In this document: piece by piece, positions 20,418 through 25,610 of the stretch
Numbering within the stretch: the stretch's first letter is position 1
How the letters are laid out: each line of letters opens with the position of its first letter
Assembly (NCBI GenBank): GCA_964414695.1
Contig: CAYPXK010000070.1
Coordinates: 1-31,833 of the forward strand
DNA from: an uncultured Thermoproteaceae archaeon
GTDB lineage: Archaea > Thermoproteota > Thermoprotei > Thermoproteales > Thermocladiaceae
Direction: 5' to 3'
Length of the DNA stretch: 31,833 bases
Program-made: the position numbers and the translations under genes
Notes under the pieces: generated by a model
What the model was told of the DNA's origin: nothing
The model's database searches: none
Seen by the model: only the letters and a program-made list of their open reading frames with translations

Positions 20418-20780
20418 ATGCAGGGTGGAAACAGCATTGAATCTTGTCTACAGAACATAGATACCTCAAGCGAGGTTAAGGCTACTCGACAATTTCTCAC
20501 ATGTCTAGGAGAGGTTCTCTCGAAGAAGTACCAGAACAACGTTAAGGCAGTTGTTGTCGATAATGGCGTAAAGTACAACTATGTGCTGTACCTCGAGGTC
20601 TACTCGAAGGATGTGCTTGATAATGTGCTTAGGGAAGTTGAGGAAGGTCTGAGGAAGCTACAGTCGGCTAGTCCCAGCTTGCAGGAGTATTTAAAGAACA
20701 TGAAGGTGCAGGATTGGGGAAACGAGAAGTACATAATGCTCAGTAAAGAATATGTAATCGTCAAGTACGTGCTGAGGTAA
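20418..20780 (+). CDS. arcade-cluster protein in the arcadin-1 position (120 aa)
   Basis: It lies directly upstream of crenactin, with a 2-nt spacer between its stop and the crenactin ATG. The assignment is by position only; I do not recognise the sequence itself. Confidence 0.5.
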
Positions 20781-20782
20781 GA

Positions 20783-22093
20783 ATGCTTACGGACGAGTCA
20801 AGGTATAAGCTAAAGTACACGTATGCAGAGGACTTTGGAACAGGCTACTTCAAGTACGGTCCAATAACCCTAGGTGATAAGCCGAGAATGATTCCAAGTC
20901 GCGGTCTGCTACTTAGAGACCTTCCTGAAAGTGTCAAGATGCTCATACCGAAGTCAGTCCTTGAGCGTGGAGTTGTTGTTGGTGACGACGTGTCCAAGTA
21001 TCTCAGCTCCATCAGAGATGCAGCAAGGAATCTGCGTCAGCCACTAAAGGACGGCATAATAAGACGTGACGATGAGGATGCTTGGAAGATCGTTAAGGAG
21101 CTTGTGAGATTTGGATTTCAGCAATTCTATCCTGAAGCTGCCAATCAGCCAGACTTCAGAGGATACTATGTTGTCATTGCACTGAGCGCACTGGCACCAG
21201 ACTACATGAGAGAGAAGATGATAGAGATACACCGCGAGGTAGATGAGGAGTTTGAAGGTAAGCTAATTGCAGCTGTCACAATAGTTGACCAGCCATTTGC
21301 CGTTGCCATTGCTGAGAAAGCTGTCACGTGCTCCGTCATTGAGGCAGGACATGGAAATATTCAGGTCGTGCCAATAAGCTATGGCCCAATTAGAGAGGGA
21401 ATAGTTGCACTTAACAGAGGTGGAGCAGAGGCTAATGCCATAACGAGGGAGATCCTGAAAGATGCAGGCTATGGAGACCTTGCAAAGGACGAGTATGTTG
21501 TCGAGATTGTTAAGAGACAAATAGGTCTAGTACCCAGAGACCTGAAGGAGGCCATCAGGAAAGCAAAGGAGAACCCCAAGAGATTCGCAGTCAAGGTCAA
21601 GATTGGGCCACTCGTGGAGATCGAGCTCGTCGAGCACTCATGGATGAGATTCCTAATCGGCGAGATAATCTTCAATCCAAAGCATGAGGAGTTCACAAGC
21701 TACATACAGACAGGTAGACTCGTCATAGAGGATGTCGTTGTCGGAGACATGGTATTCTACGGTGAGATGGATCTAGCGGAGGCACTCATAATGAGTGTAA
21801 AGAAGACACCTGTCGAAATTCAGGAAAAGATCATCGGGACAATAATACTCAGTGGTGGAGCATTCAACTGGTCCGTACCACCGGGACTCGAGGATGTTGC
21901 TGTGACAAGCACCGAGAAGATACGCATAATGGTTGCCGAGAGACTTCCCGACCTTGCTGAGAAGCTCAACGTGAGGATGGTTAAAGACCCACAGTTCAGT
22001 GTATGGAGAGGAGCCATAATCTACGGCTATGCTTTACCAACCTCAGTAAAATGGAGCGACAAGTACAAGGAAGGCTGGTACACTTGGAAGTGA
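20783..22093 (+). CDS. cren-1: crenactin (archaeal actin homologue)
   Basis: The actin-fold motifs are [13 protein letters not shown] (phosphate 1), [14 protein letters not shown] (phosphate 2) and [10 protein letters not shown] (adenosine). [35 protein letters not shown] and [15 protein letters not shown] closely match the Pyrobaculum crenactin sequence as I remember it. Confidence 0.9.
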
Positions 22094-22936: not shown

Positions 22937-23112
22937 GCACTGAGATAGATAAGACAGTTCTTGAGCTTCTCCGACGTGAAATTCAGGATGAGGAGACCTA
23001 CAAGCTCGCAGAGCAGCTCTACCAGGCCTATAAACAGGGTGGTCAAAAGAAGGTTCGTGAACTAGTGTATGGTTTACTTAAGGAGATAGGTGTAGAGATT
23101 AAAGAAGAATGA
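22933..23112 (+). CDS. 59-codon ORF in the arcadin-3 position (absent from the supplied ORF track because it is under 60 aa)
   Basis: My translation is MSTEIDKTVLELLRREIQDEETYKLAEQLYQAYKQGGQKKVRELVYGLLKEIGVEIKEE. Its ATG overlaps the upstream stop (caATGA, 22933-22936). Its stop overlaps the downstream start (aATGA, 23109-23112). Confidence 0.5.
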   Translation: MSTEIDKTVLELLRREIQDEETYKLAEQLYQAYKQGGQKKVRELVYGLLKEIGVEIKEE

Positions 23113-25610
23113 CGAAGTATAGGCTACAGTCATTAGAAATTGTAAACTTCAGGGGATTTCGAGGAAGAGTCGTAATACCGTTTGAGAAGCCCATAATAGC
23201 AATATATGGACCTGTAGGTGCAGGTAAGTCAAGCATTGTACAAGCCATAGAGTATGCCCTCTATGGAAGACAGCTCGAGGTCAAGGAGAGAATAGCTAAG
23301 CTTGTCGATCTAATAAACGAGGAAGAAAATGAGGCAAAGGTAACTCTAACATTAGTAAGAGAGGACACAGGCGAGATTCTGAAAATATACAGAGCCCTGA
23401 AACGCGTCGGTGATTCTGCACGAGAACATCAGGTTGAGCTAATTGTAGGCGGAAAGAAAGTAGCATCAACAGTTCGCGATGCCACCGAGATAATAACAGA
23501 AATACTTAGACTAGATGAAGAAGACTTCTCAAGATTCATACTAGTAACACACAGAGTCCTAGAAGGTCTAGTATATGGAACTTCGACAAAAAGAAGCTTA
23601 ACAATAGACAAACTTTTTGGAATAGACATACTGGAGAACATATACAAATCAATACCAATAAGAAAAGTTGAAGAAATACTTGAACAAGAGAAAAACAAAC
23701 TATCATCATACAAAGAACTGCCAGAAATAATAGCAAGGTATGGCTCAATTGAGGAGGCTAGAAGAGCATTAGCTAAAATGAAGGAGGAAATTGAGGAATT
23801 AAAAAAGACCGAGGAAGAGCTTCAGAGAAAGTACAGTAAACTTATAGAAGAGAGGAGTAAATTATTAAGTTCTCTAAGAGATCTTGAAAATGTTTATATA
23901 AAGTACCTACAGGTTAGAAGCGAGCGTGAAAAACTTGAGGAGGAGATAAGTGGCAAGGAGAGTGATGTATCTGAGACTTCTATTAAAATAGAACTTGACT
24001 TAATTAGAAGTTTTCTAGTTTCTAAGCTTGAGGAACTTCTATTTTCTAAGGAGGCCGAGGAGTTGAGTAGTCTGAACATAACGTCTCATAATATTGATGA
24101 GGTAGCTGTAAAAATTTACGATATTGTAAGAAGGTTAGAAGATTCTTTATCAAGGTTTGATGAAGAGAAGGAGAATTTATCTAAAGCCCATGAGGAACTT
24201 AAAATTGAGGCTGAGAGACTTAGTAATGAAATCAGGAGCATAGAACGCAGATTACGTGAGCTTGAGGCACAATTTCGCGAATATCAGGAACTTGAGAGTA
24301 AGTACGGTCAACCTGAGGCCATTAGAAAAGAAATTGAACGTCTTAGAGAGAGTCTCGAGAAGACTGGAACTGACGTAACAATAGCATCTTCTCTAATAAC
24401 AATCCTGCAAGCTGTTGTCGATGGAAAACTAACAACATGCCCAATCTGTGGTCATGAGCTCAGTGAACATGAGAGACAGGAGGCAAAGAGGAGACTAGAG
24501 GAACTTAAGGAACGTTATAAGAAATATCTTGATAATATTGATGAAATTAAGAGGAAACTCTCCGAGCTTGAACATGTTTTAGCTAAGATGGAATCATTGA
24601 AACCTATCGTATCTGAGTATGAGGAACTCTACACTAGGTTAAAGATGCTTAGAGAGAATTACAGTAAGGTTCTTGCAAAGTTAGAAAACATTGATAAGAC
24701 AAGAAGATTAATAGAGAAGAGAGCCCAGACTTTAAGATTTATAATAGATGAGGTTAGGTCAAGACTAGACAAGGTTGATGTTGCATTAACGTTGCTTAAG
24801 AAGATCAAACGTTATAGAGAGCTCATACGTGAAGAGCGCGAACTTGAGAAAAAGTTAAAAGAAAGTGGGTTTGACCTTTCAAGAGCCTCTAAAATTGAGG
24901 AAGAGATCTCTGAAGTTTCTAGAAAATTAGAACAGGTTAGGGAGAGACTTAATGTTCTGTCTGTTGAAGTCTCTAGGCTTGAACAGGTTCTAAGTTCGAT
25001 ACCTGTGGAGACTGTTGAAGAGCTTAGAAATAGAGTTTATAGACTTGAGATTATTTATAGGAGACTTAATGATATTAGGAATGTATTGAAAAAGATTCAG
25101 AAAGACTTAAGAGAGAGAATGATTGAGCGCACTCGCTCGCTTGTTGATCAGTATTTCAGGATGATATATCCGCATCCTGACCTGACTGGTGCAAGCATAG
25201 AGATCAGTACACGTGAGAGACTTGGCGTTGTTGTAAGTGAGTACGTCCTGTACGGTGTCAGGAGGACAGGAAGGAAGGTTCCCATATCCAGGATGAGTGA
25301 TGGCCAGAGACTCACTCTTGCGCTTGCCTTCATGTTGTCTGTGTACACTGTTGCAAGTCACAATGTCAGTTTCTTGATAATGGATGAGCCTATACCCTAT
25401 GTCGATGTTGAGGTCAGGAGAGCGTTTGCTGAGCTCATCACGAGGCTGATAACGGAGAGGCTTGTGAGTCAGCTAGTTGTGACTTCTCAGAGTCGTGAGT
25501 TCATTGAGCAGATTGTTGAGGAGGCTCGTCGTCAGAAAGTTCCTGTTGAGCTTATTGAGATAGAGCGCATCGATGGTGATAGGAGAATTAAGGTGAGCTA
25601 TATTGAGTAG
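23109..25610 (+). CDS. SMC/Rad50-like coiled-coil ATPase with a central CxxC zinc hook (arcadin-4 position)
   Basis: Walker A is YGPVGAGKSS. The coiled coil of about 600 aa is interrupted at its midpoint by TTCPICGHEL. The signature motif is MSDGQRLTLALAF and Walker B is FLIMDEP. Confidence 0.75.
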   Translation: MTKYRLQSLEIVNFRGFRGRVVIPFEKPIIAIYGPVGAGKSSIVQAIEYALYGRQLEVKERIAKLVDLINEEENEAKVTLTLVREDTGEILKIYRALKRVGDSAREHQVELIVGGKKVASTVRDATEIITEILRLDEEDFSRFILVTHRVLEGLVYGTSTKRSLTIDKLFGIDILENIYKSIPIRKVEEILEQEKNKLSSYKELPEIIARYGSIEEARRALAKMKEEIEELKKTEEELQRKYSKLIEERSKLLSSLRDLENVYIKYLQVRSEREKLEEEISGKESDVSETSIKIELDLIRSFLVSKLEELLFSKEAEELSSLNITSHNIDEVAVKIYDIVRRLEDSLSRFDEEKENLSKAHEELKIEAERLSNEIRSIERRLRELEAQFREYQELESKYGQPEAIRKEIERLRESLEKTGTDVTIASSLITILQAVVDGKLTTCPICGHELSEHERQEAKRRLEELKERYKKYLDNIDEIKRKLSELEHVLAKMESLKPIVSEYEELYTRLKMLRENYSKVLAKLENIDKTRRLIEKRAQTLRFIIDEVRSRLDKVDVALTLLKKIKRYRELIREERELEKKLKESGFDLSRASKIEEEISEVSRKLEQVRERLNVLSVEVSRLEQVLSSIPVETVEELRNRVYRLEIIYRRLNDIRNVLKKIQKDLRERMIERTRSLVDQYFRMIYPHPDLTGASIEISTRERLGVVVSEYVLYGVRRTGRKVPISRMSDGQRLTLALAFMLSVYTVASHNVSFLIMDEPIPYVDVEVRRAFAELITRLITERLVSQLVVTSQSREFIEQIVEEARRQKVPVELIEIERIDGDRRIKVSYIE

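Follow-up and report, generated by a model that had tools for sequence, protein, structure and literature searches.

A probable crenactin arcade cluster with a lineage-specific layout and an additional leading gene in an uncultured relative of Vulcanisaeta

The arcade cluster of Pyrobaculum, with arcadin-1 at its head followed in the same direction by crenactin and arcadin-2, -3 and -4, was reportedly set out by Ettema et al. in 2011, a study that we know through the papers citing it. Here we analyzed a stretch of 31,833 nt from an uncultured Thermoproteaceae archaeon (GenBank assembly GCA_964414695.1, contig CAYPXK010000070.1, positions 1 to 31,833 of the forward strand), referred to as the window, in which an earlier note had recognized a complete five-gene arcade cluster at 20418–25610. 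We consider it probable that this locus is the crenactin arcade cytoskeleton system of an uncultured Vulcanisaeta relative, arranged in a lineage-specific layout, and that the 120-aa product of its leading gene (hereafter P120) is an extra, lineage-specific partner.

Thermoproteales have neither FtsZ nor the Cdv/ESCRT machinery, and crenactin together with the arcadins is the leading candidate for a role in division or shape, a question that was unsettled in a 2024 review (PMC7617429). In Pyrobaculum calidifontis, the last 17 residues of arcadin-2, which include a tryptophan, bind the hydrophobic groove of crenactin and depolymerize its filaments; the full-length protein binds with a dissociation constant (Kd) of 31 nM and the peptide competes with the D-loop (PMC5173319). 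Arcadin-2 of this species was located between segregated nucleoids. For arcadin-1 a crystal structure (5LY5) is available, and its binding to crenactin is weak (Kd 15 uM) and leaves polymerization unaffected (PMC5173319), so that the earlier note is outdated in limiting structural or biochemical data to crenactin and arcadin-2.

Crenactin and its downstream partners

Direct reading of the sequence returned the five co-directional open reading frames (ORFs) exactly as they had been described, in lengths and spacings alike. All lie on the forward strand: P120 (120 aa, 20418–20780), crenactin (436 aa, 20783–22093), an arcadin-2 homologue (260 aa, 22154–22936), an arcadin-3 homologue (59 aa, 22933–23112) and an arcadin-4 homologue (833 aa, 23109–25610). 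The arcadin-2 homologue starts with GTG and the other four with ATG. P120 and crenactin are separated by 2 nt (TAA GA ATG) and crenactin and arcadin-2 by 60 nt (22094–22153), while the two remaining junctions are 4-nt ATGA overlaps. Homologues of all five ORFs were found in the same order in 11–12 other genomes, and the ratio of nonsynonymous to synonymous substitution rates (dN/dS) against the closest relative (locus L001) is 0.014 for crenactin, 0.028 for arcadin-3 and 0.30 for P120. Because of the conserved order and the low dN/dS the five-ORF arrangement is not due to chance. The neighborhood of crenactin is conserved across other Thermoproteales as well, and flanking genes that lack homologues beside crenactin elsewhere, named in the earlier note as a reason to give up its reading, were not what we observed.

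The 436-aa protein scores 743.2 bits against the NCBIfam crenactin equivalog model NF053560, above the cutoff of 630 and over the complete model (1–422 of 422), and it aligns colinearly from end to end with the solved P. calidifontis crenactin (PDB 4CJ7/4BQL; E 1.7e-172, residues 7–432 on 7–427). Its next-best PDB matches are eukaryotic actins with E values of about 1e-5; the MamK model scores 57 bits, Pfam Actin is matched with E 4e-12, and identity to the Pyrobaculum and Thermoproteus crenactins is about 61%. We identify the protein, in agreement with the earlier note, as crenactin, a predicted actin-fold filament-forming ATPase; it groups with crenactin and not with MreB, ParM or Hsp70. Carried over by homology, it would form F-actin-like double filaments. 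Many GenBank records of metagenome-assembled genomes (MAGs) and other genomes label crenactin as 'heat-shock protein Hsp70'.

The 260-aa protein is identified as a diverged arcadin-2, as proposed. A profile of its orthologues aligned with four Thermoproteaceae arcadin-2 sequences in hhalign with a probability of 98.8% (E 5.7e-17, 32% identity over 97 columns), and the motif [DN]N[PE]W[VI]x[IVL]L occurs at the C-terminus of all 17 intact homologues, reading ...DNPWVQIL... in the window, IVDNEWVRILRSKT in Pyrobaculum and ILDNEWVKILRKRGAQ in Thermoproteus tenax. The C-terminal peptide of the window protein (PEFLRDNPWVQILARKATGQ, the last 20 residues, 22874–22933, forward strand) is the predicted plug of the crenactin hydrophobic groove. 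Conservation of this peptide across about 40% crenactin divergence supports the view that monomer sequestering is general and not a Pyrobaculum peculiarity; the C-terminal Trp helix would plug the groove, sequester monomers and in this way depolymerize filaments. The description as a 'coiled-coil protein' captures a part of the molecule. Long helices are predicted at residues 125–213, joined by an N-terminal alpha/beta domain (1–111), a disordered linker (214–240) and a terminal helix (242–257), according to the hhalign comparison and a single-sequence AlphaFold2 (AF2) model of low confidence (predicted local distance difference test, pLDDT, 58), which was used for domain layout alone and not for fold search. 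The model agrees with the layout of core, linker and helix given by Izore et al. 2016 (PMC5173319).

Similarly, the 59-codon ORF is a real gene that we assign to a diverged arcadin-3, as the earlier note had it, based on hhalign (probability 96.7%, E 4e-10), BLASTP against Pyrobaculum arcadin-3 (37% identity, E 2e-10) and the dN/dS value given above; strict equivalog status is unsupported. Wherever arcadin-3 and arcadin-4 are both present their genes overlap, by 4 nt in the window and by 23 nt in Thermoproteus and Pyrobaculum.

The 833-aa Rad50/SMC-like ATPase matches the arcadin-4 model from end to end with E 2.5e-219, and the following motifs are conserved in 16 homologues: Walker A GPVGAGKSS (34–42), hook CPICG (444–448), signature SDGQR (730–734) and Walker B FLIMDEP (755–761; Walker B/D-loop FLIMDEPIPYVD). 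The signature reads SDGQR and not SGGE. We identify the protein, again in line with the initial proposal, as a diverged arcadin-4, a Rad50/SMC-like ABC ATPase with a predicted coiled coil and zinc hook. The alternative that it is a DNA-repair Rad50 paralogue without cytoskeletal function, placed beside crenactin by chance, could appeal to the Rad50-like ABC head, the coiled coil, the CxxC hook and matches to Rad50 models with E 1e-43. However, the best Rad50 model (NF041034 and related) has a cutoff of 1000 bits and reaches 147, and the arcadin-4 model, although under its own cutoff, scores five times as much with 730 bits. The H-loop position (residues 790–795, T[ST]Q) is occupied by Gln in 16 of 16 aligned sequences where Rad50 has His, no Mre11-like gene lies beside the ATPase in the window, and the gene keeps its place behind arcadin-3 wherever a lineage possesses arcadin-2 and -3. 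A chance-placed repair protein is therefore very improbable in our view. Arcadin-3, a small helical protein, may form a complex with arcadin-4, and the hook-bearing coiled coils of the latter could bridge filaments, or filaments and DNA.

Arcadin-1 and the gene in its place

The true arcadin-1 is identified as a 126-aa ORF at 19433–19813 on the reverse strand, outside the region of the earlier note and transcribed away from the operon. It scores 117.2 bits against Pfam PF18653 Arcadin_1 (cutoff 25, E 4.7e-34) and matches PDB 5LY5_A in phmmer with E 1e-32 over residues 7–115; its identity to arcadin-1 is 54% for Pyrobaculum and 48% for T. tenax, and the translated arcadin-1 genes of Thermoproteus and Pyrobaculum clearly resemble this ORF and not P120. 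An assignment to an AbrB/MazE-like domain was rejected, as a lenient Pfam scan gave Arcadin_1 alone. Between arcadin-1 and the operon lies the gene of the chromatin protein Alba (94 aa, 20067–20351, reverse strand; Pfam Alba, E 4.2e-18). The two genes adjoin each other in Thermoproteus, both on the forward strand (L017:6273–6989 and L022:4272–4987), and in the lineage of the window, both on the reverse strand (19433–20351). The Alba/arcadin-1 pair of the window's clade is inverted relative to Thermoproteus, and it looks as if the pair had been inverted as a whole unit. Inverted together with Alba and about 600 bp upstream, arcadin-1 probably has a promoter of its own. We count Alba as a conserved neighbor only.

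The system accordingly reaches upstream to 19433. As arcadin-1 lies outside 20418–25610 and is inverted, the layout departs from the canonical one, and these coordinates do not enclose the complete cluster. The arcade order claimed for it holds for crenactin through arcadin-4, which follow each other canonically, and fails for arcadin-1, which does not come first and co-directional but on the reverse strand two genes upstream, with an unrelated gene occupying its slot.

This unrelated gene encodes P120, which had been taken for arcadin-1. Were P120 merely a diverged arcadin-1, the five genes would form a canonical complete arcade cluster, and its position before crenactin and its size (120 aa compared to 111–113 aa) do match arcadin-1 of Pyrobaculum and Thermoproteus. 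However, the searches across 11 members of the P120 family speak with one voice. P120 matches no family in Pfam (E<=1) or NCBIfam; Pfam Arcadin_1 is absent from all 11 members at E<=10, and NCBIfam was negative for the 11 as well; PDB 5LY5 is matched neither by the single sequence nor by the 11-member family profile; hhalign against four Thermoproteaceae arcadin-1 sequences gives a probability of 4%; BLASTP of P120 against arcadin-1 yields no match at E<=100; and the 50 top-ranking Foldseek matches of the P120 model in the PDB do not include 5LY5. The genuine arcadin-1 is already present at 19433–19813, and the two families co-occur in 13 loci. We therefore reject P120 as arcadin-1 and give this explanation next to no weight. 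Because both proteins co-occur, P120 is not a substitute for arcadin-1 either.

P120 is a real gene, and its family is small and undescribed. When 1.84 billion proteins were searched exhaustively with HMMER, 18 representatives were retrieved at E<=1e-3, all but two of them 77–121 aa in length, and a word-indexed search of 5.8 billion proteins retrieved 17 clusters. The named members come from Vulcanisaeta and Caldivirga and are annotated as 'hypothetical protein' throughout. When the hidden Markov model (HMM) of the family was compared with the six-frame ORFs of all loci, the sole match in each of the 13 loci that carry the family (the window, 11 relatives sharing its layout and the metagenomic locus L028) was the ORF immediately preceding crenactin, with a spacer of 2–12 nt or an overlap between the two genes. 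For Caldivirga no crenactin could be identified among the matches listed in this adjacency check; P0042 and P0047 are other lineages. An AF2 model from a 15-sequence alignment (pLDDT 88, predicted template modeling score, pTM, 0.83) predicts a compact alpha/beta protein with the order alpha-alpha-beta-beta-alpha-alpha-beta-beta-beta. Its compact Foldseek matches are RsfS/iojap proteins with template modeling (TM) scores of about 0.5. The residues C10, R24, C29, D48-N49-G50, Y53, Y58, E60 and E111 are invariant in the family, and the two cysteines could be part of a disulfide or metal site. Vulcanisaeta members carry an additional N-terminal CxxC and a fourth Cys beside the invariant C10 and C29.

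Comparing the loci, we observed that crenactin with arcadin-2, -3 and -4 forms a stable core and that arcadin-1 is mobile. The order thermosome(+), RpoK(+), arcadin-1(−), Alba(−), P120(+), crenactin, arcadin-2, -3, -4 is shared by 12 loci, namely the window, its MAG relatives L001, L004–L006 and L026, and Vulcanisaeta L007–L009, L012, L013 and L016. Thermoproteus shows Alba(+), arcadin-1(+), crenactin, arcadin-2, -3, -4, and Pyrobaculum arcadin-1(+), crenactin, arcadin-2, -3, -4. Two deeper lineages (L021:5062–10789 and L024:3965–9913) carry PCNA, crenactin, arcadin-2, -3, -4, and their flanks lack both arcadin-1 and P120. At L028:4712–6691 a P120-family ORF overlaps the start of crenactin (63% identical to that of the window) and arcadin-1 follows directly downstream; the remaining 1.6 kb contain no arcadin-2, -3 or -4. 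Crenactin alone is found in Thermocladium (L014:1611–2918, L025:6001–7296) and in another lineage (L027:5001–6305), where neither arcadin-1, -2, -3 or -4 nor P120 occurs within 5–7 kb. Thermocladium is not usable as a test of arcadin synteny, since crenactin stands alone in L014 and L025 and L015 is full of frameshifts.

Rates of change differ strongly between the genes of the cluster. Between the window and L001, identity is 100% for Alba, 97% for crenactin, 90% for arcadin-3, 88% for arcadin-1, 84% for arcadin-4, 63% for P120 and 59–61% for arcadin-2. The filament is thus nearly frozen, and P120 and arcadin-2 diverge fast, the groove-binding tip of arcadin-2 remaining invariant.

Transcription of the cluster and the role of P120

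A TATA-like box (CTTTTAAAGTATTAC, 20388–20402, forward strand) lies about 24 nt upstream of the P120 ATG and is the putative operon promoter. All 11 loci compared have such a box, 22–30 nt ahead of the start of P120; it reads TTTTAAAGTATTACC in the window's clade and CCTTATAAACC in Vulcanisaeta, and no comparable box precedes crenactin in these loci. Its conservation before P120 and absence before crenactin suggest a leaderless or short-leader transcript starting with P120. Transcription would begin at this box, and P120 and crenactin would be translated as a coupled pair. The spacer between crenactin and arcadin-2 measures 36–90 nt in the window's clade and includes, some 30 nt ahead of where arcadin-2 starts, A/T-rich boxes (for example GGTTAAAAAG in Vulcanisaeta), so this gap may hold an internal promoter. 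Arcadin-2, -3 and -4 would then either be read through or be driven from within the 60-nt gap, and an internal promoter would allow the sequestering factor to be controlled apart from crenactin. The stoichiometric co-expression that had been deduced from the tight gene spacing appears doubtful for this reason and also for a second one: given a Kd of 31 nM, a sequestering factor expressed at 1:1 would hold crenactin in the monomeric state and leave none to polymerize.

With moderate confidence we regard P120 as a lineage-specific partner of crenactin and not as a replacement of arcadin-1. An opposing explanation holds that P120 is an unrelated passenger between Alba and crenactin, perhaps a leftover of the inversion breakpoint, with no role in the crenactin system. 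The family is limited to a narrow clade, its dN/dS of 0.30 contrasts with 0.014 for crenactin, neither fold nor family searches gave an informative match, and the clusters of Pyrobaculum, Thermoproteus, L021 and L024 presumably work without it. On the other hand, P120 is separated from crenactin by 2–12 nt or overlaps it in every locus, the sole conserved promoter-like box stands before P120 and not before crenactin, and L028 keeps P120 beside crenactin although arcadin-1 there follows crenactin and no arcadin-2, -3 or -4 gene adjoins them. None of the examined loci has a family member in any place other than beside crenactin. We consider a mere passenger unlikely.

For P120 as a partner, direct binding of crenactin is the most economical hypothesis: the compact alpha/beta protein would bind crenactin monomers or filaments. 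More tentatively, and with somewhat more doubt than belief, we propose that P120 founds a crenactin-associated family, a 'sixth arcadin', of Vulcanisaeta, Caldivirga and related uncultured Thermoproteales, which binds crenactin and modulates filament assembly, for example by nucleation, capping or bundling. If true, P120 would represent a new actin-binding fold from archaea, unmatched by any actin regulator known from eukaryotes or bacteria.

Several findings weigh against the reading of the locus as an arcade system with P120 as an extra partner. The three downstream products remain below the cutoffs of their NCBIfam models: arcadin-2 scores 43.1 bits against NF053561 Rkd2 (E 3.6e-11, residues 13–173; cutoff 290), a model that appears to have been trained on Thermoproteaceae, arcadin-3 scores 35.2 bits against NF053562 Rkd3 (E 9e-9; cutoff 90), and arcadin-4 scores 730.1 bits against NF053563 Rkd4 (cutoff 860). 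The roles of arcadin-3 and arcadin-4 are inferred. Crenactin of Thermocladium has no arcadins nearby, and therefore partners need not be encoded beside crenactin. The role of P120 as a crenactin partner is deduced from gene context, and its adjacency to crenactin comes mostly from one clade, with L028 as the sole independent arrangement, so that shared ancestry explains much of it. P120 evolves fast, with 63% identity where crenactin has 97% (window compared to L001), and Foldseek found no significant match of its model in the PDB (best E 1.8e-3, the nucleotidyltransferase region of SpoT).

The surroundings of the cluster have the character of an ordinary archaeal chromosome. The window has a G+C content of about 42%, and its other genes include those of a Hel308-type helicase, thermosome, RpoK, Alba, CstA, eIF2-gamma, Rpb7 and S24e; a tRNA scan and an Rfam scan of the window gave no match. 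Two neighboring genes at 11673–13671 on the reverse strand both match the N- and C-terminal domains of cobalamin-independent methionine synthase (MetE). Downstream of arcadin-4 the window carries CstA, where Thermoproteaceae have, among others, a TrmB-family regulator and a radical-SAM gene. In Thermoproteus, arcadin-4 is followed by a conserved gene of 213–218 aa without Pfam match (L017:11645–12301 and L022:9508–10149), a copy of which is located about 1.4 kb downstream of arcadin-4 at L021:12217–12873; this copy matches the arcadin-2 and arcadin-4 HMMs weakly, a similarity that is probably due to coiled coil. The Thermocladium gene downstream of crenactin is on the opposite strand and SRPBCC/polyketide-cyclase-like. 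Multiple frameshifts occur in crenactin, thermosome and arcadin genes of the JCM drafts of Vulcanisaeta and Thermocladium (L008, L012, L013, L015 and L016), which most likely are sequencing or assembly errors and not pseudogenes.

Comparison with known systems

The arcade cluster is not a rigid set of five genes. In some lineages arcadin-1 is inverted, located downstream or absent nearby, crenactin sometimes stands alone, and one whole branch carries an extra gene at the front of the crenactin operon. The core partners (crenactin, arcadin-2, -3 and -4) can be separated from lineage-specific ones, an annotation based on position is corrected, and P120 is nominated as a small candidate crenactin binder that is well folded in its model. 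The inverted Alba/arcadin-1 pair and the uncharacterized leading gene were not found in the accessible literature; Ettema et al. 2011 may already show the layout of Caldivirga, and we therefore keep the claim of novelty modest.

The arcade cluster of P. calidifontis and P. aerophilum (PMC5173319) resembles that of the window in the order and orientation of crenactin, arcadin-2, -3 and -4, in the C-terminal Trp helix of arcadin-2, in the overlap of arcadin-3 and arcadin-4, in the zinc-hook, Rad50-like arcadin-4 and in the presence of arcadin-1 nearby. It differs in that arcadin-1 of the window is not first but inverted and set off from the operon by Alba, and in that an additional gene, encoding a 120-aa protein from an unrelated family, leads the operon. 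Arcadin-2 of the window is 60 residues longer (21–29% identity), and its junction with crenactin is a gap of 60 nt compared to 4 nt in Pyrobaculum and an overlap in Thermoproteus.

The T. tenax locus (L017) shares with the window the same four downstream genes as well as the adjacency of Alba and arcadin-1 to each other and to the operon. However, Alba and arcadin-1 there run in the same direction as crenactin and P120 is missing, whereas the pair of the window is inverted in order and orientation. The Vulcanisaeta clusters have an architecture identical to that of the window, including P120, the inverted arcadin-1/Alba pair and thermosome and RpoK upstream. Identity to them is 75–79% for crenactin, about 30% for P120 and about 27% for arcadin-2; furthermore, about 1.2 kb of additional DNA separates their arcadin-1 from Alba, and their P120 has a GTG start and an N-terminal CxxC.

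Beyond the archaeal clusters, arcadin-4 shares head domains, an antiparallel coiled coil and the CxxC hook with the Rad50/SbcC/SMC ABC ATPases, from which it is set apart by scores far below the Rad50 equivalog cutoffs, by the lack of an Mre11 partner gene and by a Gln instead of His in the H-loop. The predicted insertion of a short arcadin-2 helix into the hydrophobic groove of an actin fold is reminiscent of thymosin beta-4, WH2 domains and ParR on ParM, to which arcadin-2 has no sequence relationship, and convergence was suggested by Izore et al. (PMC5173319).

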